This document shows positions 5,049 through 51,910 of a stretch of 64,000 nucleotides of DNA, piece by piece. Numbering within the stretch: position 1 is the stretch's first letter; every line of letters begins with the position of its first letter. The notes below the pieces were generated by a model. That model was given only the letters and a program-made list of their open reading frames with translations, was not told where the DNA came from and did no database searches. The stretch is from a virus (lineage: Duplodnaviria; Caudoviricetes): positions 32,001 to 96,000 of the IMG/VR virus record IMGVR_UViG_3300035501_000350; one strand, 5' to 3'. A program made the position numbers and the translations under genes.

Positions 5049-5421
5049 AAATAGTTAGAAAGTGAACTAGTTATTTGTTTGTATTTTGTTTTTCGGCAAC
5101 CTTAAGGGCTCATCTTTCAACTTTCTCTGCCGCCTCAGAAGGCCGGATTACCCCGTGTAATCCTTAAAAATTATAGTAAAAATGATTAATGTTTTCTGTG
5201 AAATTTAGCGGGACGATATCGTCATCATATCGTCAGCTCGCTTTTTACGTGAGTTCTAGAAAAGTTTCATTGTTCAAAGGCAACTACTCCTTTCAATAAG
5301 TAATTTACTATATTGTTCGGTGTATCACAGAGTACATGAAGAATTAAAGCAAAAAATATCACTCTGTGGAGCAATCCACAGAGATTTTTCAAAATTCATC
5401 TAGTTCACTTTCTAACTATTT
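5049..5421. repeat. Perfect 22-bp inverted repeat pair (5049-5070 and 5400-5421)
   Basis: AAATAGTTAGAAAGTGAACTAG and its exact reverse complement CTAGTTCACTTTCTAACTATTT. Confidence 0.9.
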
Positions 5422-7691: not shown

Positions 7692-7751
7692 TTCTATTAC
7701 CTCCATCAATATATTATTAACCAGGGCTCCGAAAAGCCCTGGTTAATTTTA

Positions 7752-8441: not shown

Positions 8442-8522
8442 TTTTATTTCCTCCATTAATATATTATTAACCAGGGCTCCGAAAAGCCCTGGTTAATTTG
8501 TCTAAGCGACTAGAATAAGTTA

Positions 8523-23164: not shown

Positions 23165-23269
23165 TTGTAAATCCTCCTTAAATTATATTGGGTGCTATGG
23201 ATAATATAGAGCGTATAGGTTTACACCTATACACCTCTATATTATACGATTATTATTAAGTTTACTCTG

Positions 23270-23866
23270 TTATAAATTACTACTTTCGTCGGCAGAGTTT
23301 TCCGATTCAGTAGATGCAGCTGCTTTCTTCTTAGCTTCAGCTTCTAAGATCTTAGCATTTCTATCTGCATATCTTCTAGTCTCCATAAACGATTCAGCGT
23401 ACTTGTTGTTGTAGTAATCATCCTTACTATTAGCTGCCTCCTCGCCAAGAAGCTTCTGGATTTCTGTGGGTGTAAGCTCATATCTAGAAGGATCGATAAG
23501 CTTGGTATACGTATTCTTGATAAGAGCTTTGTAAGCTGCACTCATAGTGCACCCTGCAGATTCAAGACCATCAAACAGATCATCTAATTCATCTACAGGA
23601 AGAACAACAAGTTCAAGACCCTGAATAATCTCATACTGGAATACAATAACAGAGATAGAATTACCAATGTTACTTGGAGTACGGCTACTCTGAGGGTCGG
23701 TAAGTCTAAACGAATATAACAGTTCATTCTCGTCATCCCACTTGGTAAATTGGAATCTGTTAGATTCATCAACGACAACGAAACTATTATCAATGAAAAC
23801 TCTTAAGGGAGCATTAATGCCATGCTTAAGAGCAGTTCTGGTCTTAATGAGCGTTTCTTTATCCAT
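23270..23866 (-). CDS. Hypothetical protein
   Basis: AAGGAG RBS; promoter motif at 23909-23920. Confidence 0.75.
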   Translation of the reverse strand: MDKETLIKTRTALKHGINAPLRVFIDNSFVVVDESNRFQFTKWDDENELLYSFRLTDPQSSRTPSNIGNSISVIVFQYEIIQGLELVVLPVDELDDLFDGLESAGCTMSAAYKALIKNTYTKLIDPSRYELTPTEIQKLLGEEAANSKDDYYNNKYAESFMETRRYADRNAKILEAEAKKKAAASTESENSADESSNL

Positions 23867-23946
23867 ATATCTATATCTCCTTTACGAATTAGTAAGTGAT
23901 TTAAGCTTTACTAAAATGTTTAAGGGGGAGTATCTAATGTGAACCA

Positions 23947-24408
23947 TCATAGATAGTTCACATTAAGATTCATGAGCTGGATGTTTTTCAATGTTGAAAT
24001 AACATCAGCGCCATTATAGATAGCATTAAACATCTGATACAACTGCAGCCAGTTATAACACCTGTCATTCTGCTTGGTTTGCTCGTTTGTTGCTAGTGCT
24101 CTCTCCTGGTTAATATCTGTTGTCCGGTACGGAACAAATCCAGATATCAAACCATCTTGGATATAGTAATTCAATGCGTTTACCAATACTGATGCAGTCT
24201 GGTATTGAACATAGCTTTCTGTTAAGCATGCAGACAGGACTTTCTCATTCGTAAAATACAAATAGTCTTGTTCGGCAATATTGTCAAACTTAATGTCTCT
24301 GATAATGCGCTTTACAGATTTTCTAATTTCATCAACAGACATGTTGTTGAAGAAGTTAGGATTGTTGTTAGCAGAGCGTTTCTCTGCAAAGAAACTTTGT
24401 CTTGCCAT
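23947..24408 (-). CDS. Hypothetical protein
   Basis: AAGGAGG RBS. Confidence 0.7.
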   Translation of the reverse strand: MARQSFFAEKRSANNNPNFFNNMSVDEIRKSVKRIIRDIKFDNIAEQDYLYFTNEKVLSACLTESYVQYQTASVLVNALNYYIQDGLISGFVPYRTTDINQERALATNEQTKQNDRCYNWLQLYQMFNAIYNGADVISTLKNIQLMNLNVNYL

Positions 24409-24440
24409 TTGCGTCGCCTCCTTGGGGTAGTACAAGTAAT

Positions 24441-24863
24441 TTACTCGTAATTAGGTGCCAGAATATCAGCACCACTAAGTCTCTCGCTTGAGGGTATATC
24501 AATAAGAGCATTGATCTCATTTACAGGGATAGAATCGTCCGTCTCTGTATTGGATGCGGAAATATGCTCATCGATATCAAAACTATCTTCCTGGTAGAAC
24601 TGTTTAGCATACTTCATGAAAGAATAAACAGACTTACGCTGAAGCAACGTACAAGATTCTACAAGAACGAATGACTCTTCAAGATCAATGTAATCTGCGA
24701 CTGTCTTGATAGTGTCATATACTTCACTTCTACCCTTGATGATTTCCCACCATGTATTATCGGAATCAGTTCCGACAAAACAGATGAGATATTCTTTATC
24801 CTCAGGGGTTTTTCTAGGAACAGAATTGTCCACAATTCTAACCATAGTTTTTTTCTCTGACAT
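24441..24863 (-). CDS. Hypothetical protein
   Basis: AAGGAGG RBS. Confidence 0.7.
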   Translation of the reverse strand: MSEKKTMVRIVDNSVPRKTPEDKEYLICFVGTDSDNTWWEIIKGRSEVYDTIKTVADYIDLEESFVLVESCTLLQRKSVYSFMKYAKQFYQEDSFDIDEHISASNTETDDSIPVNEINALIDIPSSERLSGADILAPNYE

Positions 24864-24924
24864 TTTTATTACCTCCTTTTCTATATAGTCACTATTATAG
24901 TATATCACTGAATAGTGATTTACT

Positions 24925-26136
24925 CTAGCTTGATTTTACATAGACCAACTGTTGGTCTGCTCTAGATGCTCCAACTAGATTTATACATGGCTGCATTGCT
25001 GGATTCATATGCTCCTCTATATATACAACTTTATGGAACTGAGACCCCTGAGCAATATGAGCTGTAATGCAATAGGCAAATTCAAACTTATTACCTACCT
25101 CGTATTTATTAGCTCTTATTTTAACTCTGGTATCATTCTCTGAAACCATATGAGCGTAATTACATCTAGAGTTTTTGAATATGGCATTTGGAGCCAGATC
25201 AGGAGCAAAGTTCATAGAGAATAGTTTACCATCAAAGCTAGATACATCTGGATTACTAACAACTGTACCAATAAGACCATTACATAGATTGATTACATAT
25301 CCATTAGATGCAGATACTCCTTCAATCCAGTTATTACTACGACATACTACTTTCTCTCCATACTGAGGTAGATCACCTTTGAAACCTTTGAGAGCTCGTA
25401 CACGTTTATTGATAGCATCTCTAGTCTTATTTTTACCACATATGATAGCATCTGCCCATAGAAGCATACCATCAGTAAGATCTTCTTTATTGATAACTAG
25501 GCTGTTACCATAATAGCCATTAAGCAATGGTTGACCATTACCAACCATGGTAGCAATGAAGTTTATATCTTCTCTTCCGGCTTGGCGCATACATTGTATT
25601 AGATGGTAAATCTTATTATCCCCGGTTAGAAATGCTGGTTCTTCTTTAACCGGAGGAAGCTGATGCTGATCTCCACACGCTATGATCTTTAGACCAAATT
25701 TCTCTATCGTAGGTCTTAGACTCTTAGGCATAGAGTAAGCCTCATCTATAGCTATAAGTCTAATCCTATCATCGAGATGATCTACAGGGATAAACCTAGG
25801 AACTCTTATAGGGCAATTCATAAGTTCATCCATAACTACATTGCCCTCTTTGTCTCTAAGAGGTTCAGATCTTATATTGTATATCCAGCTATGAGCTGTC
25901 TTTGCACTAATAAGACCTTTCATTCGCATCACAAGGCTAGCAGAACCAATGAAACTCATTGGAGCTACCTCTGTTAATGGGTCTAATCCTATACGACGGA
26001 TAATCTCATTTAGAACAACAGACTTTCCTGTACCGGGAGGGCCATCAATTTCAAATACTTGTGTAGTTCCATTGTAGTACCAATCCACGGCTTGTTCTAT
26101 AACGTACTGCTGTTCTTCGTTAAACTTAAACATCAA
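24925..26136 (-). CDS. SF1B helicase, Dda/RecD-like
   Basis: GPPGTGKS, IDEAYS, GDQHQLPPV, AYCITAHIAQGSQF. Confidence 0.9.
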   Translation of the reverse strand: MMFKFNEEQQYVIEQAVDWYYNGTTQVFEIDGPPGTGKSVVLNEIIRRIGLDPLTEVAPMSFIGSASLVMRMKGLISAKTAHSWIYNIRSEPLRDKEGNVVMDELMNCPIRVPRFIPVDHLDDRIRLIAIDEAYSMPKSLRPTIEKFGLKIIACGDQHQLPPVKEEPAFLTGDNKIYHLIQCMRQAGREDINFIATMVGNGQPLLNGYYGNSLVINKEDLTDGMLLWADAIICGKNKTRDAINKRVRALKGFKGDLPQYGEKVVCRSNNWIEGVSASNGYVINLCNGLIGTVVSNPDVSSFDGKLFSMNFAPDLAPNAIFKNSRCNYAHMVSENDTRVKIRANKYEVGNKFEFAYCITAHIAQGSQFHKVVYIEEHMNPAMQPCINLVGASRADQQLVYVKSS

Positions 26137-26139
26137 TCA

Positions 26140-26628
26140 TTACTTCTTTCTAGGAAGTGTAATATCAAAGATATCAAACTGATATAGATGGCTAGTCTTA
26201 TTCAGTTTGGTGATGAAGTTAAATACTCTAACAGACTCACTAATATATGGGTCTGATACCATACTCTTTGTTTCGCCATTGATATTGTAATACATCACAA
26301 ACATCCCCTTGTTAGCCCCAGGGATAGGAACCTGCGCAATGCTCTGGAATACAACTCCAATCCTATTGCAATAATTGCTAAGGAATGGGATTACTAGAGT
26401 TTCTGCTAGACGAGAGTTCTCTAAGAGATTCATCTCTATCTCGTCATGTTTCAAATACGGGTTATCAACCTCGCAATACTTAATATACTTTTCTTTGATT
26501 TGCAATACAGATTCGGTATTCATATCAAACAGGTATCCCTCATCTGTAAGATCAAATCCTAATTCACGCATCATTGCGTCATTAAATCTTAATCTAAGAT
26601 CTAGTGCTTGTGCTTTAGTTATCGCCAT
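26140..26628 (-). CDS. Hypothetical protein
   Basis: GGAGG RBS. Confidence 0.7.
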   Translation of the reverse strand: MAITKAQALDLRLRFNDAMMRELGFDLTDEGYLFDMNTESVLQIKEKYIKYCEVDNPYLKHDEIEMNLLENSRLAETLVIPFLSNYCNRIGVVFQSIAQVPIPGANKGMFVMYYNINGETKSMVSDPYISESVRVFNFITKLNKTSHLYQFDIFDITLPRKK

Positions 26629-26728
26629 GTTATTACCTCCAATAAATATATTTGGGTTCGACATAGTTATAATATACGTTTATATCATAATTTATACTGA
26701 TTACTACGAAGTTTGAGAGGGTTTAAAA

Positions 26729-27151
26729 ATGGACAATAATAACTACACTAGCTCTGAAGGATATACCCTTGAGTTTGCTATTCTTCAAGAGGATATTCCT
26801 GCAGATCAATCTACTACTGCTAATTTTAAGATCCCTACTTTAATCAATACAGGAACTGTAGCTAAAGTAAATACTAATACTTCAACTATAAGAAATAAAA
26901 CAACCACTAATCTTACTAGTGCTTCTATGAATATTAAAGATACAATCTCATTAAGAGTGCCAATGGAGTATACATATTACTGGGGTACTAGCAAAATAAT
27001 CCCTGCTGGAACTAGATTTATTGTAGCTTACATTGGTGGCAATGTTAATGAGATCGCTATTGTTGGACGATATGATCGTAGCGGTGCTGATGCTCCTGCA
27101 TGTGATAGATGTAGAGGCATCTGTGATCTTTGTCCTAGCTGCTGCGGATAA
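26729..27151 (+). CDS. Possible baseplate spike/hub OB-fold protein with Cys-rich C-terminus
   Basis: IPAGTRFIVAYIGGNVNEIAIVG resembles the gp5/gpV OB-fold pattern; ends CDRCRGICDLCPSCCG; next to a wedge-like gene. Confidence 0.4.
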   Translation: MDNNNYTSSEGYTLEFAILQEDIPADQSTTANFKIPTLINTGTVAKVNTNTSTIRNKTTTNLTSASMNIKDTISLRVPMEYTYYWGTSKIIPAGTRFIVAYIGGNVNEIAIVGRYDRSGADAPACDRCRGICDLCPSCCG

Positions 27152-27165
27152 GGAGTGATTAATCT

Positions 27166-27615
27166 TTGAGCGTTTATAGTTATCAGCAACCTCAATATAC
27201 ATATACTCTAGAGCAATTTGCTGCATGTACATCTACTGACACTATGAGTTATCATAATCTGTCGTTTGTTGATACCCATGATGGTATTAAGTTTGATACT
27301 TATAATGTAACAACAGACTACATTGATGAGATAAGAGATGAATACTGTGTTACTGTAAGTCTAACTGATAAAGAATTAGATAAATATAAATATAGACCTA
27401 AACTGTTATGCTATAAGATATATGGTAACGGCGAGTTGGCGTTTCTTATTCTCTTGATAAATGATATGTGCAGTGTTAAAGAGTTTACTAAGAAGAAATT
27501 ACTAATGCCTAAAAAGCAGACAATGAAGAATCTAGTAAAGTATTTATATAATGCTAATAGAGCAGCAATTCAAACCTATAATAATAAAGTAACATCCACT
27601 ATAGATGACGACTAA
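27166..27615 (+). CDS. Baseplate wedge protein (T4 gp53/LysM-like)
   Basis: YRPKLLCYKIYGNGELAFLILLIN motif. Confidence 0.6.
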   Translation: MSVYSYQQPQYTYTLEQFAACTSTDTMSYHNLSFVDTHDGIKFDTYNVTTDYIDEIRDEYCVTVSLTDKELDKYKYRPKLLCYKIYGNGELAFLILLINDMCSVKEFTKKKLLMPKKQTMKNLVKYLYNANRAAIQTYNNKVTSTIDDD

Positions 27616-27635
27616 AGAATCCAGGTAGCAATATG

Positions 27636-29432
27636 CTACCTGGAAACTTTATGGCACATTTCTTTCAATATACGAGGTTCAGTCGTAATATGTATTAAAG
27701 TTTTAGGAGGTGACTGGCTACAATAGCCGAAAGAACTGTGCTCTATGTTAAACGTGGCGATGCCGCTCGCGTTAGCAAACATATTCGATACGTCATTAGT
27801 GGGAAGTCTCACATCATTGAACTGAGTGAAATCCCTAACCTCATTAACTATACCCTGGCCTGTATTAATTCCTGTATTGAGGGCTACTTCCTCACGCATA
27901 GTAGTCTTATGCACTGGCACCGGAGAATAGATATCCTCAACAAACTTTATAGTATTGTTGATGTAAGGAATGTATACAGTATAGATATCGCCAGGGATAT
28001 AATACCTAGATTTTACTCTCTGCATTCCTAGATACTTATTACTATCCTTATCAAACTCAGGAGCTATAAGAGCAATCCAATCACTATTCTCAATAATAAG
28101 ATTAGATTCACCTACATTGCTTCTACCTATCAATCTAACCAAATCAGCTTTATTCTTAATTCTAGCTTCATCAATAGATGCTGTTGCTGTTCTGTTAAGC
28201 TGAGATGCTGTGATAACAGGGATATTCTTCAATGTAGCAAATACTTTAAACTCATTAATTACAGCTCCAAGTTGAAGTCTAAGATCTCCATTGTATGAAC
28301 CATCAACAGACTTAATTCTTTTTATATAATCTTGAATCATACAGATTACTTCATAACCTTCATCTTCAAGATCTTCACACAGAGTATACAGATAAGATGT
28401 ATCCTCTGATAGATTAGGTCTGAATTTTACTATGAGGTCTATTGGATCCCCATCTGATACATGTAATCCTCCCTGAGTCTTAAGAACATCCATGAACTCA
28501 TCTTCGCTATAATTAGTCATGTCTGCTCCTACACACATGCTAAAGATTCTCTGTACTGTTTCTTTAATGGAGTTCTCCATTACTAATAGAACTACGCATG
28601 GTCTTTTTGTAGGGTCTGCACACACATAGTTCTTATTATATCTTTTTAGTTCTATAGCCATATCAATCAATGTAGAAGATTTACCCTCTCCAGGAAGACC
28701 AAGCAATGTATAAACTCTAGTTGCTTCTACTCCACCACCAGTAAGAATATTTAAAGCTTGTGTTCCAAATATTAATCTATTGGATGGAGACGTAAGCTGT
28801 CTATATGTAGCTTGCATTGACTGAATATAATTCTCTCCAGTAAGAGAGAATGTAAGATCTTCTGAGTTGTTAGCTCTAGACCTTCTAAATTTTACTTGAA
28901 GCCTTGTAACCCAATCTTCTATTTGACTTACAATGATTCCTCTGTTAGCATAATCTGTTGCCTTGAATTTTTGCAATAGAGCTAAACCTTCATCCACATC
29001 ATTATAGATAACAGAGTACTTTAGGATTTCACTTACAGATGTATTTACCCATTCCACTTCAGAGTTATTTAATTCACGAAATGAATTTTGATTTCCAGAA
29101 CCAAATCCTCCATAGATATGATTGAAAATCATATCAGTAGTTGTTAAATTATAATCTAATCTTGCCTCTATACCTTTCGTGATGAACTCAATTCTTCCAA
29201 GACGTTCTTGGTCATTTCCATAGTTGCTAATATCCATAATGAGAAATAGATTTCTAAGATTAATGATATTTCCTCTACGGATAGAACGGTTCTCTGAAAG
29301 TATATATGAACACATCAAATCTAATTCAGTTATATCAAATTTGACGTCAATTTTTAAATTCTTATTTTTAACTGGAGATGCAGCCACACCCCCACTATAC
29401 TTCTGCCTTCTGTTGGATTCCATTAGTCCCAT
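27636..29432 (-). CDS. DnaB-like replicative helicase
   Basis: GLPGEGKS Walker A, MEN, QDYIKRI, TASQLNR. Confidence 0.9.
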   Translation of the reverse strand: MGLMESNRRQKYSGGVAASPVKNKNLKIDVKFDITELDLMCSYILSENRSIRRGNIINLRNLFLIMDISNYGNDQERLGRIEFITKGIEARLDYNLTTTDMIFNHIYGGFGSGNQNSFRELNNSEVEWVNTSVSEILKYSVIYNDVDEGLALLQKFKATDYANRGIIVSQIEDWVTRLQVKFRRSRANNSEDLTFSLTGENYIQSMQATYRQLTSPSNRLIFGTQALNILTGGGVEATRVYTLLGLPGEGKSSTLIDMAIELKRYNKNYVCADPTKRPCVVLLVMENSIKETVQRIFSMCVGADMTNYSEDEFMDVLKTQGGLHVSDGDPIDLIVKFRPNLSEDTSYLYTLCEDLEDEGYEVICMIQDYIKRIKSVDGSYNGDLRLQLGAVINEFKVFATLKNIPVITASQLNRTATASIDEARIKNKADLVRLIGRSNVGESNLIIENSDWIALIAPEFDKDSNKYLGMQRVKSRYYIPGDIYTVYIPYINNTIKFVEDIYSPVPVHKTTMREEVALNTGINTGQGIVNEVRDFTQFNDVRLPTNDVSNMFANASGIATFNIEHSSFGYCSQSPPKTLIHITTEPRILKEMCHKVSR

Positions 29433-34367: not shown

Positions 34368-34499
34368 ATGTATTTCCCTCCATTACATATTGTTATACTC
34401 CTCCGTGCTGTACCTAGATGTCTCGGCTATTTTAAAGTCGTATAAATTGCTATCCCCGAAACATTATGATAATAAATCCAATAGGAGGTGTTCTTAATC

Positions 34500-35447
34500 A
34501 TGCCTAAAACATATGCTGATACTTACCTATATAAGACATACTCTGGGTATGAGAAGAAGATGTTCGAGTTCATCATGAATGCTGAACGAATCGACACATC
34601 GTCTGCTGAATTTGAAGATGTATTGTATGATTTTAAACGTAGAGCTGTAAGCGATAAGCTTGTTAAGATTTTGAGATCTAATAATGTTATTCTTGGTATT
34701 AATAAGGGTAAGCCTTTGCCTAAAGCATTTAAAGCATTTGTAGCTAAAGATGTAAAGACAGATAAATCCGGTAAAAATAGAAAAGTATTTATTGATGTAA
34801 CCGATTGTGTTGTTAAGAGTGGATCTACCTATAAGTGCGATCACTTGGATTGGCTTACGGCTTACTTGATTAATGGTATGACGGCTTACATCTATGCTAT
34901 GCAAGAGCATAGACTTACAGGAAACGCATCTGTTCTCACAGATGGTGGTACTGCATTTACTAAATGCTTTTCCTATGTAATTGATCGTCTATATAAAATC
35001 TCTTCTGTACAATCTCTGAGAAAGAAAGTAGAGTACGTTATAGCAATGTACTACCAAATTAATTTGATGGGAAGAGACAAAGATAAGCAGTATGATTCCA
35101 TTAAAGCTAATGCTATTAAAATCTCAGGAGTAGAGCAAAATGATGCTAGATATCTTGACGTTATGATCGCTGAGCATGACTTTGATAATCTTGATACATT
35201 CGTTAAAGCTCTTGGTAGATTATTTAGCTTAAAAGATATAAAGACCTCTATTGTTGTAAGCATGTGGATGCAGTCATTTGGTACTGGAACAGTATTTGCT
35301 ATGGAGTTCTTACCTGCATTTGCCGCTATGCTTACGAATACATACGTTGGAGGTTATATTGACCAGCAGATGACTATCGAAAAGGTCGCAGGAACATCTA
35401 TGGTTACATTCAGCAAAACTATTCTTCAGATTGGAGCGTCTGTATGA
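34500..35447 (+). CDS. Hypothetical protein, probably virion-associated
   Basis: AGGAGG RBS; promoter motif at 34460-34471; overlaps the start of the next gene. Confidence 0.7.
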   Translation: MPKTYADTYLYKTYSGYEKKMFEFIMNAERIDTSSAEFEDVLYDFKRRAVSDKLVKILRSNNVILGINKGKPLPKAFKAFVAKDVKTDKSGKNRKVFIDVTDCVVKSGSTYKCDHLDWLTAYLINGMTAYIYAMQEHRLTGNASVLTDGGTAFTKCFSYVIDRLYKISSVQSLRKKVEYVIAMYYQINLMGRDKDKQYDSIKANAIKISGVEQNDARYLDVMIAEHDFDNLDTFVKALGRLFSLKDIKTSIVVSMWMQSFGTGTVFAMEFLPAFAAMLTNTYVGGYIDQQMTIEKVAGTSMVTFSKTILQIGASV

Positions 35448-38400
35448 TTACTTTAGAGCAAAAGCAAAAAGTTTTAACCGCTCTAAAGTCACATACTGTT
35501 ACCTCTGTAAGGGCTAATCAAAAATATAAGATCCCTGTAATAATTGATGGAGAAGAAAGACTCCTTACAGGTATTGATATTGTTGATGAGGCTGATGGAT
35601 ATTACGCTATTATTCCTAAAGATGGTATTATCCCTAGAGCAATAGAGCATGAGCATTCATATACTACGCTTAAAGAGCTTGAGGAGAATAATATAATCTG
35701 GGGAGGAATTATTCTAAATAACTCTAAAGATCAAAATGTATATGATCATAAGTCTGCCGATGGGGTAGAGGTATCTCAAAGAGAAAGTATTGTCACATTT
35801 GGAAATAAGAAAGTTAGATTCTTTAATCAGAAGTTTTTCCATTATGATGATACTTGGTACGAGTATAAATACTCTGCCGATGAACCTCAATATACATACG
35901 GAATTATTAGAGTAGAGAATATGCCTTTCAATCCATTTGAAGGCAAGCGCAATATGAAGTCTTTTATCTGTAGTTTAAACAATCTATTCTATCAAAGATA
36001 TTGTGAGCCATTCATGTTGTTTATAAACAAGAAGTTTGTAAGCTGGAATGACATTATGGTTGTCTTTGATTGTGGAACCACGTATCTTCTCTTATATGGA
36101 GAGAAGTATAACTATTTTGATCTTAGAGATGCTGAGATACATATGGTTATATTGCCCTTCAAGGTTGATTATATTGGGGAAGAATCTGATGATAGATTCA
36201 ACATGATGTATGAAATCACTAGAGAATACATTCAGGAATCTATGGTTATAAATGATGATGGTTCTTTTACAATAACATCTCCTGGAATAGATGAAATCTA
36301 CAGATACAGAGGAATGGTTTACAACGTAGGAGCATGGTTATATCAGCAGCTTAAGTATAATGCATTAGGAAAACTATCATTACAAAGAAAAGAAAAGCTT
36401 AGAAGATTTGATGTAATAAAGAGAGAGTATGATCTCGCTGGCAATATAATCAATACTGTCTATACTAAGTTTAATGCTCTAGATAAGGATTCTTATGATA
36501 CCGCCCTATACAATCAGGTTACAGAGGGAAGAACTCTATTTGAATTCCAGGATAGAGCAATATTTAAATTTGATAGTGATGGTTTATTAGATTATAGCAG
36601 TGGAGTTAATACTATAGCTCTATTTGACGACATTACATATTTCAGGCGTCATTATTCAAATAACACCACCGCAGTGGTTCAAGATACTCACGTAAGGAAT
36701 ATTCTATTTAGAGAAAACTTTGTAGTTTTTAGAAATGGTTTATTTGATCCTACATGTGAGATGGATATATCTGTACATAATGTATGCACTATAGATAATC
36801 CTAAAAAGGATAATCTTGATATTCTAGTATTCTATCATCTTCCTATAGAGCGTATTGTTACTCTTTTAGATAAGTTTGATTGGGATTACATCTATGAAGT
36901 CTCTAAGAATATAATAGAGAAGAATCTGGATGTAAAGAATGGCGTTAGCGCATATGTATACGATGAGAATGGAGAAGTAGTAAATCAATTCGATCAGATT
37001 GATGCCATCTTCTCTAAATCTAAATTTAAGTTTACTCCTAAGATGACTAGCAATGTGGTATTTTTAAATGCTAATGACTATGAGCGTCAGATCTATTTAC
37101 AGATGATGGCATATTATCTTGATTATCAGTACACAGATGATAGACTGTATGAAGAGAATTATAATGAAGCAATGAACACAGTAATGGCTTTTGATCCATT
37201 GCTGTTTAGTAATCTCTATCATACTAATATTGATTCTAAAACATACTATGGATATGAGGCTAATGAATCTCTTCTTGGCGTAATTGATTATGAGAATCGT
37301 AAAGGATTAAAGATCCCACGGAATAAATACGAAAAGCATGAATCTTATGTATTAGTATTTGAAAATGGAGAGCTAATAGAAGAGTATTCACAGATGTGTG
37401 TATATCCAAACTTCTTCTTTATCCCAATGGATAGAGAGTTCGCATCTCAAAGCCGCATAGAGATTCTCTATTTCAATTATATTGATAATAATGAGATTGG
37501 ATTCTATCTTACAGATTATATGGTAGAACATATGCAGGAGGCTCAATCTGGAGATACTAAATGGTATGGTACTGATATATTCAATCAGTTCATTAATCCT
37601 AAAGATCTAAAGATCTTCTGTAAATACCCTGAAAATATCATAGTATATAACTCTCTGGTAAAAGAGTCTAGTGATATTGCATTTAATGTATCTTATAGAG
37701 ATACAGAGGGTGATCTATACCTCATAGGCGATGTTGTCGATGAATGCTTAAATAATACAGAAGATAAGTGCAAACTCACAGCTGTATCTAAGCGTAAATT
37801 TATCTACCAGAGGTTGTGTGTAGAGAACAAATCATATCGTATAATTCTTGGATCTAGATTTAGATATTGCGATAACCCCAGACAGTATATGCTGTTTATT
37901 AATGGTCGTCGTATTAGTGAGGAGTATTATTATATTACTATACCGAAATACACTAGACCATTCTGGGGTATGTATCTATATACTTCTAGATTTGTTGGCC
38001 CTGAAGATAGAATTGAATTGTTCTATTTACCAGAAGAATTCCCCAATATAAATGATAAGCTTAATCTACAGATCACCAAGTCTGGCTATATACAGACTAG
38101 AAAAGAGAATCTTGAAGTTCCATTAGACGGTAGATATTATATGATCTTCGCTAATGGTAAGAAGATTCCTGCAGATGATATTGTTCCTATAGATAGCCAT
38201 ACTATCCGTCTTTCTAAAGACCAACAGACAATGAAGAATATTGTAGTCAATCGTATCTACACTGACACTATGGATGAGTTCTCTGATTACTTTAAGGATG
38301 AATCTCTTAGTGCTTATGATACTATGACTGATTACATTATAAATTGTCTACAGCTTGGAACTACAGAATTAGATAAGCTCTTCCAGGTTTATGAGAAAAT

Positions 38401-39757
38401 GTCTGATACTGAAGTTGATATGAATAGACGGAATGTAAATAGAATTGCTATTATCAATGAGATAGTAAGAGATTTCTGGGTTACATCCGGATATGATTAT
38501 AATACTCAACCATTTGTGTATGACTTCATATCTGATGATCTAATTATTAAAGATGAGAATGGTAATTTGATTATTCCTGCACTGGATGCAAATCAGTATA
38601 TCAATATCATTAAGAATGATACTCATCTTATCTACTATTATCATAATCCTAATGGGAACTGGTTTGAGAATGGTAGAGTAATAAATGCTCTTACATTCTT
38701 CTGGGAGTATTCTACTAATCTATATGGTAATAAGACTATATATGAACAGATGATGGCGTATTCTTCAGATGACGATCCATCTAATCTTACTAAGATAGAT
38801 CTTGGTACCGATACTAGAGAATGGGCCTATAATACCTCTATCTCTAGTGATATGACTTTCCATTTCATTGGTAAGACTACATCTCAAATTGTAGATAGAG
38901 TAAGCCATATTAAGTTTGCTGACTGTGTTTACGTTGGAACTATAGATGAAGATCTCTTGCAAGATTATAGCAAGGATTGGACAGGTGTATCTGCATTTAT
39001 TCATAATGATTCCGGAGGATTAGATAGAGTCATCAATAAGATAGATGTGATTACTTCTAATGAAGAATTTAAGTTTACTCCTAAGATGACTGAAAGTGTA
39101 GTCTTCTTGAACTATGATGAATTACAAAATATGCTCTATACTTTCAAAGACCTGTGTCAGCCCTCGCCAGAAGTCACTTTAGAAGGCTGTACTATCGGAA
39201 ATAACAATTATTTTGTATATGCGTGTCCTAAGAGTTACGCCTATGATGGAGACGACTGTTTGATAGAATTTATATTCCCAGATTTAAATTCTCCAGATAT
39301 AATGAATCATCTTACAGTTGGTACTACTCCTGTATATACATCTGGTATTTATAGTCTTAGTACTAATAATAGACTAGAATCTTTAGATCGTATGGAAATG
39401 ATCTTGTTAGATGAGATATCTTATACTAATAAATATGGCCATGAAGAAACCTATTGTGTATGGAGAACTAATGGCTTCTTTACTAGATTAGATGATGATT
39501 GTAAGTTTGATATTACTATAAGATTTAAAGATCATACTAAGTCTTATTCGTTTGATTATGACGAAACTATCAGAGCAATTGAGGTGAATGAAAACATGGA
39601 TACTGAAATCATTGATATGGATATTGACGAACTGTTTGGTTCTTCTAGCAGTGATTCTACTGTAACTCCTGTAGACGAGAATGTTACCCCTAAGCCCTCC
39701 AAGGCTAGAAGTAATAATGTGGTTATGATTGATGATATTAAAATATTAAACACGTAA
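35444..39757 (+). CDS. Large virion structural protein (baseplate/tail-associated)
   Basis: 1437 aa; repeated (L/V/I)F(I/R/E/A)NG beta motifs; internal repeat FKFTPKMTxxVVFLN. Confidence 0.65.
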   Translation: MITLEQKQKVLTALKSHTVTSVRANQKYKIPVIIDGEERLLTGIDIVDEADGYYAIIPKDGIIPRAIEHEHSYTTLKELEENNIIWGGIILNNSKDQNVYDHKSADGVEVSQRESIVTFGNKKVRFFNQKFFHYDDTWYEYKYSADEPQYTYGIIRVENMPFNPFEGKRNMKSFICSLNNLFYQRYCEPFMLFINKKFVSWNDIMVVFDCGTTYLLLYGEKYNYFDLRDAEIHMVILPFKVDYIGEESDDRFNMMYEITREYIQESMVINDDGSFTITSPGIDEIYRYRGMVYNVGAWLYQQLKYNALGKLSLQRKEKLRRFDVIKREYDLAGNIINTVYTKFNALDKDSYDTALYNQVTEGRTLFEFQDRAIFKFDSDGLLDYSSGVNTIALFDDITYFRRHYSNNTTAVVQDTHVRNILFRENFVVFRNGLFDPTCEMDISVHNVCTIDNPKKDNLDILVFYHLPIERIVTLLDKFDWDYIYEVSKNIIEKNLDVKNGVSAYVYDENGEVVNQFDQIDAIFSKSKFKFTPKMTSNVVFLNANDYERQIYLQMMAYYLDYQYTDDRLYEENYNEAMNTVMAFDPLLFSNLYHTNIDSKTYYGYEANESLLGVIDYENRKGLKIPRNKYEKHESYVLVFENGELIEEYSQMCVYPNFFFIPMDREFASQSRIEILYFNYIDNNEIGFYLTDYMVEHMQEAQSGDTKWYGTDIFNQFINPKDLKIFCKYPENIIVYNSLVKESSDIAFNVSYRDTEGDLYLIGDVVDECLNNTEDKCKLTAVSKRKFIYQRLCVENKSYRIILGSRFRYCDNPRQYMLFINGRRISEEYYYITIPKYTRPFWGMYLYTSRFVGPEDRIELFYLPEEFPNINDKLNLQITKSGYIQTRKENLEVPLDGRYYMIFANGKKIPADDIVPIDSHTIRLSKDQQTMKNIVVNRIYTDTMDEFSDYFKDESLSAYDTMTDYIINCLQLGTTELDKLFQVYEKMSDTEVDMNRRNVNRIAIINEIVRDFWVTSGYDYNTQPFVYDFISDDLIIKDENGNLIIPALDANQYINIIKNDTHLIYYYHNPNGNWFENGRVINALTFFWEYSTNLYGNKTIYEQMMAYSSDDDPSNLTKIDLGTDTREWAYNTSISSDMTFHFIGKTTSQIVDRVSHIKFADCVYVGTIDEDLLQDYSKDWTGVSAFIHNDSGGLDRVINKIDVITSNEEFKFTPKMTESVVFLNYDELQNMLYTFKDLCQPSPEVTLEGCTIGNNNYFVYACPKSYAYDGDDCLIEFIFPDLNSPDIMNHLTVGTTPVYTSGIYSLSTNNRLESLDRMEMILLDEISYTNKYGHEETYCVWRTNGFFTRLDDDCKFDITIRFKDHTKSYSFDYDETIRAIEVNENMDTEIIDMDIDELFGSSSSDSTVTPVDENVTPKPSKARSNNVVMIDDIKILNT

Positions 39758-39786
39758 CATGAATATAGCAGTTGTGACATATTTAT

Positions 39787-39980
39787 ACTGCTATCCGTAG
39801 TTGGGCCGCGATTAGTTAGGTACCGATAGCCCTCACTCCAAGTGTAAGAATTTACACAAATTCCTACATGTATATGATAGTTATGATTGCACCTTAACTA
39901 TCATGGGCATAAGAGTTGGTCCTCGCAGCCCCAGTATCAATCCGCCGCGTAGCCCTGTTTGGCCGCGCGGCGGGTTTCTT
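39787..39980 (+). ncRNA. Candidate structured ncRNA (about 190 nt)
   Basis: Promoter GACA-TATTTA-TA; several stems; GC-rich terminal hairpin followed by TTTCTT; no ORF in the track. Confidence 0.5.
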
Positions 39981-40013
39981 ATTATTAAAAATTAATATAA
40001 CGTACATATTAAT

Positions 40014-40119
40014 GACAGGTGCGTCCCTGTCTCCTTTCTGACCGGACACTGCGTATAATTTTGTTGCTAAAGCTTTTCACAGACGTTTCCCGTATGGTTA
40101 ATTCCATACGGGGAATGTT
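40014..40119 (+). ncRNA. Array RNA unit 1 (predicted)
   Basis: 5' stem GACAGG/CCTGTC, CTCCTTTCT tract, terminal hairpin. Confidence 0.55.
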
Positions 40120-40154
40120 CTTGTATAAAAATACAATACGATATACATATTAGT

Positions 40155-40268
40155 GGTGGGTTTGGTCGCCCATCTCTTTCCTGGTTTGAGCCTTTGAACT
40201 CCTATACCAGAGGCTCAGCATTTAGGTTTCCTTAGAGAATCCCCGTATGGTTAATTCCATACGGGGAT
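40155..40268 (+). ncRNA. Array RNA unit 2 (predicted)
   Basis: 5' stem GGTGGG/CCCATC, second stem TGAGCCTTTG/CAGAGGCTCA, terminal hairpin. Confidence 0.55.
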
Positions 40269-40307
40269 ACCTAGTGTAAAAATATACAATATGCTATACA
40301 TATTAGT

Positions 40308-40411
40308 GACGGGTCTTCCCGTGTGCCCATCCCTTCCGTACGGGTTTGATGCAGCCCGATTTTCAACTTATTGGCTTGGGGATTCCCCGTATGGTTAATT
40401 CCATACGGGGA
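40308..40411 (+). ncRNA. Array RNA unit 3 (predicted)
   Basis: 5' stem ACGGG/CCCGT, CCCTTCC tract, stem CGGGTT/AGCCCG, terminal hairpin. Confidence 0.55.
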
Positions 40412-40455
40412 TACCTCTATTGTGTAAAAATATACAACACGGTATACATATTAGT

Positions 40456-40590
40456 GATGGGATTGCTCAACTACCCATCTTTATGAATGGCCACTAGTAT
40501 ACTTCGGCGGTGGCACTAGTGGTTGTTTCATAGTATAGTGTCCTTAATGGGATATTCCCCGTATGGTTAATTCCATACGGGGGATGTTCC
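40456..40590 (+). ncRNA. Array RNA unit 4 (predicted)
   Basis: 5' stem GATGGG/CCCATC, stem CCACTAGT/ACTAGTGG, terminal hairpin. Confidence 0.55.
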
Positions 40591-40624
40591 GCGTAAGAAA
40601 ATACAACACATCATACATATTAGT

Positions 40625-40765
40625 GATGGATATAGTTACACGTGTTCATCATTCTTTCCAGTGTTGAGTTAGTAAGCCCTTGCCTGAAAACTCAGCGTTT
40701 TTACTCTTGTAGACATGTTAGACAAGGATATTCCCCGTATGGTTAATTCCATACGGGGGATGTTC
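40625..40765 (+). ncRNA. Array RNA unit 5 (predicted)
   Basis: 5' stem GATGGATAT/GTGTTCATC, TTCTTTCC tract, stem GTTGAGTT/AACTCAGC, terminal hairpin. Confidence 0.55.
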
Positions 40766-40838
40766 TGCTTTAAATTATAAATATATATTTATATTTACAT
40801 AAAGTTAATTTATTTACAATAATTGGAGGTTTAGAGAA

Positions 40839-41723
40839 ATGATGCTGCAGGAAGAATTTAATAAGATTACTACTGCCTATGAGAATTATATCAAGAACGG
40901 CGGGCCTAAGAGCAGTTCTGATAGAATGAACTACATTAATACTGTATTCAATAGTGTTAATATGGTAATCAAACTACTGTGTATTAGCGTTAATGGTGTT
41001 GATGTTGATTCTGCTGTGCTCACTGAGGCACAGTATAATAAGCGCAGTGCCATGGGTAATAAGCTGTTTGGCTCTCAGACAGCTAATGCAGAAGAAATTA
41101 CTAAACCTTCTGAGGATATTACTGAAGAAGAGTCTGTTGTTATTAATTCTGTATCTGTAGAGGATATTCCCTCTGCAGAGGAACAGTCTGAAGATACTAC
41201 TATTATTACTGAGGAGGATACCGATATGCCTGCAAAGGAAACCAAGACTAAGAAAAAGACTAGTACTAAAAAGAAGGCTGTTGAAGAGCCTTCCGAGGAA
41301 ACTAAGAAGACTACCACTAAAAAGAGGTCTACCAAGAAGACTAAGAAAGAGCCTATCGAAGCAGAAGTTAAGATGAAGGAAATCGAGGATTTCGTTGCCG
41401 GTAAGACTGCTGTTGATATTATCGGAGAAGAGCTTACCGCATGGGGTATTTCTTCTGATTCCTTTGTTTATAAGGCTCTTGTTAGACTTCCTGAACTTAC
41501 TAAGCATGCTGTTAAGTATGCTGAGGTTGTTGATCTTATTGCTGCTGATACTGGTAAACCTAAGGGAGTTATTTCCTCTGCTTTCACTAACATGGTTAAG
41601 AAAGCAGATTTCTCTAAGACCATCTACTTACCTAACTTCCTTAAGCTTACTGAAGAAGAGCTTCGTAGCAATAGAGACTTTGTAATCGAGCAGCTTGCCG
41701 AATATTGCGAGCCTGACGAGTAA
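40839..41723 (+). CDS. Protein with acidic and Lys/Thr-rich linker and C-terminal Spo0A-effector-like domain
   Basis: GGAGG RBS; the C-terminal ~100 aa align by eye with the Spo0A DNA-binding domain. Confidence 0.5.
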   Translation: MMLQEEFNKITTAYENYIKNGGPKSSSDRMNYINTVFNSVNMVIKLLCISVNGVDVDSAVLTEAQYNKRSAMGNKLFGSQTANAEEITKPSEDITEEESVVINSVSVEDIPSAEEQSEDTTIITEEDTDMPAKETKTKKKTSTKKKAVEEPSEETKKTTTKKRSTKKTKKEPIEAEVKMKEIEDFVAGKTAVDIIGEELTAWGISSDSFVYKALVRLPELTKHAVKYAEVVDLIAADTGKPKGVISSAFTNMVKKADFSKTIYLPNFLKLTEEELRSNRDFVIEQLAEYCEPDE

Positions 41724-42486: not shown

Positions 42487-43503
42487 TTAATAGATGTATT
42501 TATTATGCGCTGCCTTAACAGCGTCATAAGATGTCTTTGCATAGATCATGGTAGTTTCAATATTAGCATGCCCAAGAAGCATTGAGATTTCATTAATGCT
42601 CATTCCATTATGCAGTGCGATAGTTGCTGTGGTGTGTCTAATAACATGGGGAGTTACTTTCTTATTTAAACCTACAGCTCTATCAGAGATAGTACCAACT
42701 ATCTTTTCTATAGCCTCTTTCTTTAGAGGATTGTATGGTTTTCTTTCAGATACAAATATGAATTCTGAATCGCCATTACGCTCTTTATCAATATATGTCT
42801 CTAGAGCTACCCTAGCTCTAGCATTCAGGAAGGATATTCTATGCTTAGATCCCTTACCGAAGATATGCACTGTATTTGCCCTCCAATCAATATCTTCAAA
42901 TTTTAAAATTGCTAACTCTGATACTCTACATGCTGTAGAGTATAGTGTTTCTATAATCGCATTATCCCTTGCAGATTGGCAAGCATTTCTTAATAATTCT
43001 AGCTCATATGGTGTTAGAGCTTGTCTAGGGGGAGTCTCATAATGTATTGGCTTGCATGGATACCCAGGGTTCTTTAAGATATATCCCATCTCGTGGCACC
43101 ATGTAAAGAATCTAACAATATACTCTCTGTATTTGTCTAGAGTTCTATTGCCAATATCATGGCTTAATTGATATCTAGTTAGATAATCTCTAATATCATC
43201 AGCTTCAATTTCATTTAAATCTTTTTGGCAATCTTTGAAGAATAACTCTAGAACTAATCTATACCCATAGCATGTCTCTGGAGTCAATCCTTCAGATTGT
43301 TTACATTCGATATATTTATATACTAATTTTGGAACTCCATTATTTCCTCTGGCGAAATATTGATTAGTAGTTTTCTCATAAAAATTAAAATTAACAGCGG
43401 CTTTATCCATGGAGCTAAGAATTTTGCTAATTTGATCTCCATTTAGATTTAAGCCGCATGATGCAAAGTTAGATACAACAGCGTTTTTATAGAAATTATA
43501 CAT
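42487..43503 (-). CDS. Tyrosine recombinase (XerC/XerD-like)
   Basis: ACRVSEL (R), GKGSKHR (K), HVIRH, LGH, TTMIY catalytic Tyr; N-terminal SAM-like domain. Confidence 0.93.
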   Translation of the reverse strand: MYNFYKNAVVSNFASCGLNLNGDQISKILSSMDKAAVNFNFYEKTTNQYFARGNNGVPKLVYKYIECKQSEGLTPETCYGYRLVLELFFKDCQKDLNEIEADDIRDYLTRYQLSHDIGNRTLDKYREYIVRFFTWCHEMGYILKNPGYPCKPIHYETPPRQALTPYELELLRNACQSARDNAIIETLYSTACRVSELAILKFEDIDWRANTVHIFGKGSKHRISFLNARARVALETYIDKERNGDSEFIFVSERKPYNPLKKEAIEKIVGTISDRAVGLNKKVTPHVIRHTTATIALHNGMSINEISMLLGHANIETTMIYAKTSYDAVKAAHNKYIY

Positions 43504-43686
43504 TAGAACCTCCATTATGGTGTGCTAGCGTAGTTTATAATACGTTATTACTCTTTACACTAATGTATTTCTTATTGTATAATTCTACTTTAACATGTTA
43601 AAGACAGTACCAATCCCAGGTGGAGCGCTCCACCTGGGACTAATCTGGGCTATATGCTAAATTTAACATATAAATCTCATTGGGCA

Positions 43687-43965: not shown

Positions 43966-44072
43966 CGGTTTGACTCACCAGCCTATTACTTATTTGACAG
44001 CATTAGGCCGGGGGAGGCAAATGCCGCCCCCAGCCGTTATGCCCGTCGGATTATAATGTTATGCAGCTAGAC

Positions 44073-44744
44073 TCAGGAAGCGGACTCGTCAGCAACCTCA
44101 ACGATGTAGAGAACACCATCATCGGTAACATCGGTATCAGCTTCAACAACCTGGATGTACTCCTTGATGGTAGCCTTCTCTTCAGCGGTTACGAAATTGT
44201 GGTCGTCATCCTCAGTGACCTTGGTAGCTGCAACGGCGGAATCGTCATAAACAGTTACCTCAGTGCCGTTGATCTTGATGTTACCATTGGTTGCGGAAGC
44301 CTCAACCTTAGTAGCACCAACAGCCTGCAGAGCAGCAACGTCCTTAACGAGGCCAGAGTTAGAATCGCCGACAGCAGTCTTCAGGGCATTGACATCCTTA
44401 ACCAGACCAGAGTCGGCATCACCAACAACAGCAGCGAGATCGCTAATCAGAGTGGAGACGTCATCATTCTCATCCAGCCAAGCAGCAACTTCCTTCAGAG
44501 TATCATAAGCGTCATTGATAGTCTTATCGGCATCAGTGAAGCCCATGATCTTATTGTACAGCTCAGTCAGCTTATCATCAGCCTCAGACTTGGTGTACAC
44601 GTCACCAACGCCAGTGGCCAGAGATGCAAGCTTAGCAGCAACGGTAGAGCCATCATACTCAATCATGTCAGCAGAGGACCGAGGATAGATGTCATATACA
44701 GTGCCAGCAATCTTTTTCTTCAGGTATACATTCTTAATAGCCAT
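44073..44744 (-). CDS. Fibre-like virion protein with YPxSSAD module
   Basis: IYPRSSADMIEYD; AYDTLKEVAAW; VGDxxSGLVKDV repeat; AAGGAGG RBS. Confidence 0.65.
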   Translation of the reverse strand: MAIKNVYLKKKIAGTVYDIYPRSSADMIEYDGSTVAAKLASLATGVGDVYTKSEADDKLTELYNKIMGFTDADKTINDAYDTLKEVAAWLDENDDVSTLISDLAAVVGDADSGLVKDVNALKTAVGDSNSGLVKDVAALQAVGATKVEASATNGNIKINGTEVTVYDDSAVAATKVTEDDDHNFVTAEEKATIKEYIQVVEADTDVTDDGVLYIVEVADESAS

Positions 44745-44839
44745 AAATATATCCTCCTTTTTAAGAATATAGAAATGTGATGCATATGCATTAAATTAAT
44801 GTTTAATCTCTTAGGAGGTTGGCTTAATCCAGAAATTGG

Positions 44840-50407: not shown

Positions 50408-51910
50408 ATGGCAGATCAGATGTCTATTAATTTGCAATATCCGTATGATGGCAAATACGATTATTTCACTGAGATTAAAAGAATTAATCTAGACAAGCAA
50501 CGTGATGAGGATATTAAATCTGGAGTTGGTTTTCTCATTACAGAGCCCAAGGGTATTAAGAAAGATGTAAAGCTCCAGAATGGTATTTTCTCCAGTAGAT
50601 ATGGATCTAATTCTATTTCAGATACAGATTCATTCTCTGGGAGATATCGTTGTAAGTGCGGATTAAAGAGAGGTTCCATTAACAATGGTGAATATTGTGA
50701 TGTATGTGGAACCAGAGTAACATATGTAGATGATGATGTATCTATTACTGGATACTTGAAATTGAAAGATCGGTATTGGATTATTCATCCTAACCTGTAT
50801 TATACTATAGAGCAGTTCATTGGCTCTGGTAGATTACAGAGGATTATTGAACCTGACGTTCAAGTGGATTGTAATGGTAATGAGATTCCCATTATTTCCG
50901 TGAAGAAAGATGAACCCTTTAAGGGTATTGGTCTATTGGAATTTCATGAGAGATTTGATGAAATAATGAGCTTCTATCTTGCTAAGTATCCTACAAAGAA
51001 GCTCTATTATGACAACATCATGCAAGAGAGAGAAAACGTATGGACTCATACTATTAGTATTTATTCTAGCCTGTTGCGTCCTAGCTCTCTAGATAATGGT
51101 TCTCTTAAATACGAGGACTGTAATGACCAGTTTAATATGCTTGCTAGCCTGGTGTATAAATGTAATGATGATGCTCTTGAGATTGATAGAAAGATCAAAG
51201 AGCGTTTAAATCTGTTGTATGACATTCAGGTCTGTGTTAACACAGTATACACAAAGATCAAAGAAATCCTAGCAAAGAAGAAGGGCGATATTAGAACTGC
51301 TATTGGTGGTAGATATTGCTTTAGCTCTAGAAGCGTTATTAAACAAGATCCTACGCTGAGATCTGATGAAGTAAGATTACCATTCGCTGGTTTATGCGAG
51401 ATGCTTCAACAGGTTATCATAAACATTCTTGTACGTTCTTATAGCTTCAACTATTCTGATGCGTATAAGAGATGGTACAAAGCTCAAGTAATTGGATTTG
51501 ATCAAGCAATCTATGATATTATTGATGGTCTTATCAAAGATAAGAATGGATTGCCTGTACTGATCAATCGTAATCCTACAATATCTTATGGAGGCATCTT
51601 AGCATGCCGCTGTATTGGTATTAATAGAGATTATACCATGTCCATCAGTCTGTTGGTGCTTAAAGCTCTTGCAGCAGATTTCGATGGTGACACACTTAAT
51701 ATCCTCTATCTATACAATAAGGATTTCATTAGACTTGCAGAAAGAATAATCAATCCGAAATATATGTATATAGATAGAAACACTGGAACCTGCAATGCAG
51801 ATTTCATCCACAGCAGAGATACGATTATTAATGCCAATAGTCTTAAGAGCCTCTATCACTACAGTCCTGAACAGATAGAACGTATTAGAGCTCTTCAGGC
51901 TATGGATTAA
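50408..51910 (+). CDS. Phage multisubunit RNA polymerase beta' subunit, N-terminal/catalytic part
   Basis: CKCG...CDVC zinc site, LLRP, KKGDIR...SRSVI, LINRNPT, AADFDGD. Confidence 0.92.
   Translation: MADQMSINLQYPYDGKYDYFTEIKRINLDKQRDEDIKSGVGFLITEPKGIKKDVKLQNGIFSSRYGSNSISDTDSFSGRYRCKCGLKRGSINNGEYCDVCGTRVTYVDDDVSITGYLKLKDRYWIIHPNLYYTIEQFIGSGRLQRIIEPDVQVDCNGNEIPIISVKKDEPFKGIGLLEFHERFDEIMSFYLAKYPTKKLYYDNIMQERENVWTHTISIYSSLLRPSSLDNGSLKYEDCNDQFNMLASLVYKCNDDALEIDRKIKERLNLLYDIQVCVNTVYTKIKEILAKKKGDIRTAIGGRYCFSSRSVIKQDPTLRSDEVRLPFAGLCEMLQQVIINILVRSYSFNYSDAYKRWYKAQVIGFDQAIYDIIDGLIKDKNGLPVLINRNPTISYGGILACRCIGINRDYTMSISLLVLKALAADFDGDTLNILYLYNKDFIRLAERIINPKYMYIDRNTGTCNADFIHSRDTIINANSLKSLYHYSPEQIERIRALQAMD

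Follow-up and report, generated by a model that had tools for sequence, protein, structure and literature searches.

A candidate tandem array of small non-coding RNA genes in the largest gene-free gap of a phage genome record

The largest gene-free gap of the 119,917-base IMG/VR virus record analysed here, which derives from an uncultured giant gut phage, appears to hold a series of tandemly arranged genes for small non-coding RNAs; these would be read by the phage's own polymerase and would have been built by copying one terminator-promoter junction, a reading to which we assign a probability of about 0.55. The window, i.e. the whole stretch of 64,000 nucleotides under analysis, corresponds to bases 32001-96000 of that record, whose completeness is 38% according to CheckV; the whole phage genome is probably about 300 kb long. 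The gap (39758-40838, about 1.1 kb) is without any ORF of at least 60 aa, and its G+C content is 40%, versus 33% in other gene-free DNA. Beyond the 294-aa gene bordering the gap there are a gene for an HTH protein and then one for a tyrosine recombinase, and the record also codes for a DnaB-like helicase, topoisomerase II, anaerobic ribonucleotide reductase and a subunit of a split RNA polymerase with 31-33% identity to those of the Yersinia phage phiR1-37 and the Bacillus phages AR9 and PBS1. The 294-aa protein itself (40839-41723) matches no Pfam or PHROG family; its Atlas model, of low confidence, bears a weak likeness to the C-terminal DNA-binding domain of Spo0A (TM 0.31/0.44) which, if real, hints at a spore-forming Firmicute as host. 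Further downstream, two long ORFs overlap on opposite strands (44061-44780 on the plus and 44073-44744 on the minus strand), the minus-strand ORF (223 aa) being the one chosen by the public gene call in a sister contig.

In the mechanism that we propose, the gap would be occupied by a row of seven short non-coding units, each running from a promoter to a hairpin and five of them sharing an identical end hairpin, which the AR9-type non-virion RNA polymerase (nvRNAP) of the phage would read in the middle or late phase. Each RNA, of about 95-140 nt, would open with a stem at +1 that probably protects the 5' end, followed in most cases by a pyrimidine-rich stretch, a unit-specific body and an ordinary gene-end hairpin. 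In the order of the units, the predicted lengths are about 95 and 106 nt (or about 215 nt for these first two together), then 105, 116, 107, 132 and 139 nt. The row may have grown by repeated copying or recombination of the junction that precedes the 294-aa gene in relatives, with unrelated inserts lying between the copies. Each unit would yield its own stable RNA, and these RNAs could regulate either by base pairing or by protein binding through the constant hairpin; their role is probably a regulatory one. What the DNA demonstrates, at the level of sequence, are the signals, their match to the signals used by the phage genome-wide, the 5' stems and the homology of the junctions.

The original prediction described five units with an identical 25-nt core, and this layout was recovered in full: the core CCCGTATGGTTAATTCCATACGGGG stands at 40089, 40242, 40386, 40558 and 40734, with periods of 153, 144, 172 and 176 nt, and a search allowing up to 3 mismatches found these 5 copies, all in the gap, and no other in the 119,917-base record, the backwards control returning 0. 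The start motif, TACATATTA(A/G)TG (TACATATTARTG), has 5 matches in the window, all of them in the array, versus 0.08 expected from shuffles. The element TACAA was also found where it had been placed, 7 nt upstream of the start motif in units 2-5, and a pyrimidine tract is present in four of the five units. Ahead of the array lie two more units that are built alike (Table 1), which probably brings the five candidate small-RNA mini-genes of the gap to seven. The claim that the array lacks ORFs holds for 39758-40838 at the length cutoff of 60 aa; moreover, no coding frame is common to the units on either strand and the gap shows no consistent ORFs. Micro-ORFs were rejected as candidates, the ATG inside the hairpin being paired and without a ribosome-binding site. 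A minus-strand frame of 38 codons (39894-40049; 51 codons if counted from the GTG at 40049) runs through the GC-rich terminator, with AGAAAGGAGA placed 25 nt before its ATG and the unit 1 stem in between, within the stretch covered by the RNA-library contigs described below; this frame is probably due to chance.

Table 1. Units of the gap and neighbouring features (positions in the window)
Feature	Position	Strand	Elements
Extra unit 0a	39756..39864	+	Promoter-like AACATGAATATA, +1 = 39767, matrix rank 91 of 239,770; +1 stem AGCAGT/ACTGCT, body of ~95 nt, end hairpin weak and AT-rich; fold z -1.1, not significant
Extra unit 0b	39865..39985	+	Promoter-like TACATGTATATG, +1 = 39876, rank 47; 8-bp stem at +1; GC-rich hairpin 39939-39976 and a T-run after it, together a classical terminator (39939-39985); z -4.4
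Unit 1	40003..40118	+	Promoter TACATATTAATG, +1 = 40014, stem GACAGG/CCTGTC 40014-40031; tract TCCTTTCT; constant hairpin core 40089-40113
Unit 2	40144..40270	+	Promoter TACATATTAGTG, +1 = 40155, rank 28; stem GGTGGGT/GCCCATC; strong 11-bp body stem (body z -2.2); constant hairpin 40239-40268
Unit 3	40297..40414	+	Promoter TACATATTAGTG, +1 = 40308, rank 37; 5' stem; constant hairpin 40384-40411
Unit 4	40445..40587	+	Promoter TACATATTAGTG, +1 = 40456, rank 25; stem GATGGG/CCCATC; long 18-bp body hairpin (body z -4.0); constant hairpin 40557-40582
Unit 5	40614..40763	+	Promoter TACATATTAGTG, +1 = 40625, rank 12; 9-bp stem with G-U pairs; constant hairpin 40733-40758
294-aa gene with promoter TACATAAAGTTA	40796..41723	+	Promoter rank 17
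Flanks of the gap			1437-aa protein on one side, 294-aa protein on the other, both without family
Tyrosine recombinase (Phage_integrase family)	42487-43515	-	1.7 kb from the array
RNA polymerase beta subunit (phrog_2987)	50408-51910		Piece of a split multisubunit polymerase

Judged from its distribution in the record, the start motif of the array would be a real promoter type of this phage, as originally proposed. The form WACA-N6-T is found 15-60 nt ahead of 31 gene starts, and the consensus for the phage can be written as WACAT-N5-TA, lying 18-55 nt ahead of about 30 genes; a stricter form reaches, in gene-free DNA, about three times the density that it has in coding DNA (1.88 versus 0.67 per kb). 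When 239,770 positions were ranked with a matrix trained on pre-gene sites, the array being excluded from the training, units 2-5 took ranks between 12 and 37 and all seven sites of the gap fell in the top 258. Sites resembling sigma-70 promoters do not exceed their frequency in shuffles, and not one of them coincides with a unit start. One core promoter match on the minus strand, with its +1 at 40054, has flanks unlike those of the other promoters. The promoter rule of the AR9 non-virion polymerase is AACA-N6-TA, read on the non-template strand, the last base being +1, where T is accepted besides A (PMC9209446); this sets the starts of the units exactly where they had been predicted. The resemblance to the AR9 nvRNAP late promoters (PMC9209446) extends to the -11 ACA -8 element, the spacing, the T at -1 and transcription starting at the next base, and the split multisubunit polymerase to be expected for promoters of this type, a relative of that of AR9, is encoded in the record. 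Position -11, which is A or T here, and the start itself depart from the rule, since the array reads TACA-N6-T-G and begins with G whereas AR9 nvRNAP promoters begin with A.

The stem that had been predicted to open each unit at +1, with its pairing kept, is confirmed. When the five stems are aligned, 29 of 30 cells are paired and three of the six pairs are changed on both sides, i.e. compensated; partners slid out of place give 36-60% pairing, and only 11 of 500 shuffles reach the observed values. The free energy of the first 30 nucleotides (+1 to +30) ranges from -7.8 to -10.0 in the units, as compared with a mean of -1.9 and a best value of -4.5 at 16 mRNA promoters, from which such a stem is absent. 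Among 424 loose motif sites in the record, 19 carry a stem at +1 or +2 with a dG of -7 or lower, and seven of these 19 follow one another, all on the plus strand, in the 1.08-kb gap; it is this run of seven consecutive sites that adds the two extra units ahead of the array.

The interior of the units is less uniform than the original prediction of a variable structured RNA implied. Whole units fold at z -3.2 to -6.6, to which the constant hairpin contributes much; once this hairpin is left out, the bodies of units 1-5 have z values of +0.25, -2.2, -0.5, -4.0 and -0.8, respectively, so that variability holds throughout, while structure beyond that of shuffles is restricted to units 2 and 4 and the other three bodies are at shuffle level. 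Beyond nucleotide 25 the bodies are mutually unrelated, their pairwise identity being 0.50 against 0.49 in shuffles.

Comparison with related phages bears on how such a row could arise. Only three homologues of the 294-aa protein are found among 5.8 billion proteins. In one of these loci (L009) about 150 nt separate the two flanking genes, and this interval contains a single hairpin, different in sequence, followed by the promoter; the junction before the 294-aa gene has the same make-up in the other two (L010 and L011). Aligned with these three, the array junctions have in common the hairpin, GTAtAAAAATACA, seven bases and TACAT-N5-T, from which it follows that the repeated block would be a copied terminator-promoter junction; its apparent parent, on this alignment, is the junction standing before that gene in relatives. 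For the 1437-aa gene upstream, about 95 relatives are known from contigs of gut phages that reach 314 kb in length, and in the seven loci compared the upstream synteny is kept and the downstream side is different each time. None of the eleven relative loci examined has the array; where the flanking genes are shared, its site is either empty of units or occupied by a single unrelated one, and the expectation that unit number and order could be compared across related phages came down to one other strain, a second assembly of the phage (L006), in which the array has the same number of units and is identical except for a T-to-C change at 39871. A single non-coding promoter-to-hairpin unit of about 125 nt (fold z -4.0), built on the same plan, follows the large gene in a 207-kb ENA contig (L012:8835-8975), with no sequence likeness to the units of the gap, 0a and 0b included. 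Searches of the gap with blastn against 50,697 phage records, of the exact hairpin in IMG/VR, of the promoter pattern of the 294-aa gene in IMG/VR and in JGI metagenomes, and protein-guided locus searches with the 294-aa protein gave no match. As regards the upstream side, a thymidylate kinase gene, five small genes, a 312-aa virion protein and a 1275-1494-aa protein (34488-39757 in the window) are syntenic in all relatives examined (L012-L019); these relatives come mostly from animal gut samples, and all the DNA downstream of their large gene differs from phage to phage.

By these comparisons the array site would be a plastic spot that recalls the PeSL cassettes of T4-type phages. The gap could then also be taken for the debris of regulatory cassettes, in which recombination-prone hairpin-promoter junctions like PeSLs are separated by functionless leftovers and any RNAs are by-products. 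PeSLs are composite promoter and stem-loop motifs which shuffle modules and form mini-circles (PMC2839356), and the conserved junctions next to bodies of shuffle-level identity, the homology with the corresponding single junction of relatives, ahead of the 294-aa gene, the hypervariability of the site among the relatives known for the upstream gene and the three bodies without significant folding are what would be left behind by such events. We nonetheless consider debris rather unlikely, since PeSLs flank ORFs and the units here have none, a stem with compensatory changes sits exactly at +1 in every unit, the G+C content of the bodies is above that of other gene-free DNA, units 2 and 4 have very stable specific stems, and the 25-nt hairpin, loop included, is completely conserved next to a diverged spacer.

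The constant hairpin, which had been predicted to act as a 3' handle or terminator, would belong to the ordinary gene-end style of this phage: the record has about 45 perfectly paired, GC-rich hairpins that look alike (CCCC..TGG loop CCA..GGGG), almost only between genes. The tails are T-poor in both, with 5.3 +/- 1.6 T in 10 positions in the gene-end class and 3-5 in the array, whose hairpins, like that class, are without a clear U-run. Across the five copies identity amounts to 100% in the 25-nt hairpin, 97% in the 12-nt promoter and 67% in the spacer between them. Between phages the two arms of the junction hairpin have changed together and remain paired, which indicates that a terminator needs the pairing only; the identity of the five copies down to the loop, while the spacer has drifted, thus points to a reader of the sequence or to gene conversion, and we infer that either a specific reader of the hairpin or ongoing gene conversion keeps the copies alike. 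It is tempting to speculate that the 25-nt hairpin is a handle for a dedicated phage or host protein and the bodies exchangeable payloads, the whole being a modular and fast-evolving battery of late small RNAs which would silence or titrate host or phage functions in AR9-like jumbo phages. This extension is doubtful, and no description of such a battery was met with in the literature searched. Copied gene-end blocks and shared hairpins are also seen away from the array. The hairpin CTCTGTGGA-gcaa-TCCACAGAG at 5362-5383, before the gene at 5437, is the one that stands at the 294-aa-gene junction of another phage (L011:82-104), i.e. identical hairpin sequences occur at differing places in related phages. 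Identical 32-nt hairpins, ATTAACCAGGGCT-ccgaaa-AGCCCTGGTTAAT, with the same 8 nt ahead, follow two neighbouring minus-strand genes (7716-7747 and 8466-8497) and represent another copied gene-end block. Finally, upstream of the window (about 22760-29320 of the record), a control block made of TACACCCATATA about 10 nt before TACAAAT/TACAAAA and of hairpins CAGATGCC...GGCATCTG flanked by aattaatt is repeated before three genes, in both orientations.

The constancy of the hairpin also invites explanations at the DNA level. With 10-bp arms around an asymmetric 6-bp centre (TTAATT, the loop of the hairpin) and five identical direct copies, the palindromes have the geometry of crossover sites for a tyrosine recombinase, and genes for a Phage_integrase-family protein and an HTH protein lie close by, so that the units could be pictured as excisable, integron-like cassettes. 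This we judge very unlikely, however, as the hairpin is one of a gene-end class of some 45 members with many sequences, and a crossover site has no need of a conserved promoter and +1 stem. Moreover, L010 keeps the HTH gene and the recombinase and yet its junction hairpin has another sequence; L009 keeps the HTH gene (the contig ends before the recombinase position) and its only junction hairpin is again of another sequence; and the other strain available has the same number of units. A constant, palindromic and individually promoted hairpin could, on the other hand, copy a host CRISPR repeat and soak up the host nuclease, as an RNA anti-CRISPR or another kind of defence decoy. Its flanks, TTCCCCG...CGGGGAT, are in our assumption similar to some type I CRISPR repeats; however, a search for both arms with any loop of 4-8 nt in 185,579 species genomes gave 59 loci, none of them a repeat array and all with the look of ordinary terminator hairpins. 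Fifty-eight of these loci are single-copy, the two-copy locus has differing loops and the loop TTAATT occurs in none, which leaves mimicry extremely improbable. Four AT-rich Clostridia genomes with the same hairpin arms were set aside as bacteria, and not related phages.

RNA data provide no more than a weak hint of transcription in the gap. Of the six runs matching the stretch, five are gut metatranscriptomes, available as contigs, and four were examined. In three runs a contig extends from 39778/39781 to 40042-40045 at a depth of 5.7-8.2, versus 2-4 for pieces of neighbouring genes, and in one run a contig covers 40320-40604; the RNA-library contigs carry the T-to-C change at 39871 seen in the second assembly. 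These contigs are strandless and may include DNA, the runs were found using this same stretch, and parts of the gap without contigs count as evidence neither way. The contigs run across the predicted borders between units 0b and 1 and between units 3 and 4, which implies that termination is leaky or that DNA is present, and the separate transcription of each unit foreseen by the original prediction is a conjecture. The first contig ends about 12 nt beyond the unit 1 stem and its pyrimidine tract, and in a simple scan two of the stems, those of units 1 and 2, were flagged together with their T-rich tails as resembling terminators.

These features could also suit tandem promoters followed by a long structured leader, with the hairpins as poor terminators, the seven promoters adding up for the 294-aa gene or attenuating it, and the 5' stem with its tract serving as a promoter-proximal terminator. 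The crossing of unit borders, the common end of the contigs in three runs, the flagged stems and the few T after the array hairpins all favour such a leader, and most small RNAs of phage 201phi2-1 derive from early termination in 5' leaders (PMC11512511). Against it, a high-scoring promoter belonging to the 294-aa gene itself is placed 31 nt ahead of the gene start and downstream of the last hairpin, the same style of hairpin ends ordinary genes, convergent pairs included, and relatives express the 294-aa gene from a single junction; we therefore take the leader to be unlikely.

If the units are small-RNA genes, as we favour, their targets are not apparent in the 120-kb record. The Rfam search of the whole window at gathering scores gave no match, and at E values up to 10 the region 39400-41000 had chance-level partial matches only, far below thresholds, which sides with the original interpretation; ARAGORN found no tRNA or tmRNA, and there was no CRISPR-like match. 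No complementary target of at least 14 nt was found in the 120 kb (38% of the genome), where blastn-short of the seven bodies against the rest of the record returned at best 12-13 nt exact and 16-17 nt with mismatches (E at least 0.14). Duplexes formed by the entire bodies with start regions did not exceed shuffle level, apart from unit 3 with 44027-44075, a candidate that was rejected because this is not a real start region, the gene there being called on the other strand. Pyrimidine tracts pair with the 117 start regions better than with gene interiors with duplex energies equal to those of their own shuffles, so that the idea of an anti-Shine-Dalgarno function draws no support beyond what composition explains. 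The helicase start region ranks high as a partner for the CU tracts in three units (1, 2 and 5) but was not counted, since the pairing depends on the shared CCCATC and on a short GGAG. A guide or decoy role, as suggested originally, thus found no backing in the empty target search and the shuffle-level pairing of the tracts. Taken as a whole, the original interpretation stands as regards the promoter, the +1, the gene-end style of the hairpin and the lack of a known family; separate transcription, a guide or decoy role and conservation are the parts that found no support.

Two known kinds of array can be set apart from this one, in keeping with the first assessment. CRISPR arrays have repeats of 25-40 nt and spacers of 30-40 nt, and the intervals here are 144-176 nt with a promoter for each unit. 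The RNAs of type III toxin-antitoxin systems consist of repeats of about 34-45 nt that are joined head to tail, share a single promoter and stand beside an endoribonuclease toxin gene; the period of the array is far from this, its bodies are unrelated, and its neighbours (the familyless 294-aa protein, the HTH protein and the recombinase) include no such gene. The comparison is less clear-cut for integron-like arrays, which carry a recombinase-specific site at each cassette border and vary in content between strains; the palindrome geometry would fit, but the hairpin is of a generic gene-end type and the one other strain is identical. To our knowledge, maps of the small RNAs that giant phages make are restricted to a few Pseudomonas phages, and the roles of these RNAs are almost wholly unexplored.

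Closer parallels are found among cassettes that shuffle and among known small RNAs. The PeSL cassettes of T4-type phages (PMC2839356, PMC4122927) resemble the array in their repeated stem-loop and promoter motif, in lying in a hypervariable region and in repeats that are far more alike than the DNA between them, and PeSL-like repeated junctions thus offer a way for such a row to grow. They differ in using early promoters of the host sigma-70 type and in flanking small ORFs, whereas the array has promoters of the phage-polymerase type and non-coding inserts that open with a +1 stem. The jumbo phages 201phi2-1 and phiKZ make small RNAs, as revealed by ONT-cappable-seq (PMC11512511); they too are giant phages with their own multisubunit polymerases, and their small RNAs come from gene-free gaps and, by early termination, from 5' leaders, although these are single loci, with no tandem array reported in PMC11512511, in another clade and unrelated in sequence. 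The multicopy sibling sRNAs of Firmicutes, such as LhrC1-5 of Listeria monocytogenes (PMC4132741), share with the array the layout of several RNA genes of about 100 nt, each with a promoter and a terminator (here as sequence signals), and the CU-rich single-stranded stretches, of the kind that binds Shine-Dalgarno sequences in low-GC bacteria. LhrC copies are, however, homologous over their full length, whereas what the units have in common is limited to their promoter, their initial 6 nt and the hairpin at the end; Rfam gave neither LhrC nor any other match, and the promoter is of the phage-polymerase type. By its organization, the array would thus be closest in kind to LhrC1-5 and to the mapped jumbo-phage small RNAs, while lacking the homology that defines a sibling family. 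If the favoured reading of a polymerase-read row of RNA genes is true, giant phages are able to assemble and rearrange such genes by copying a single terminator-promoter junction, and the array offers seven exactly predicted 5' ends.
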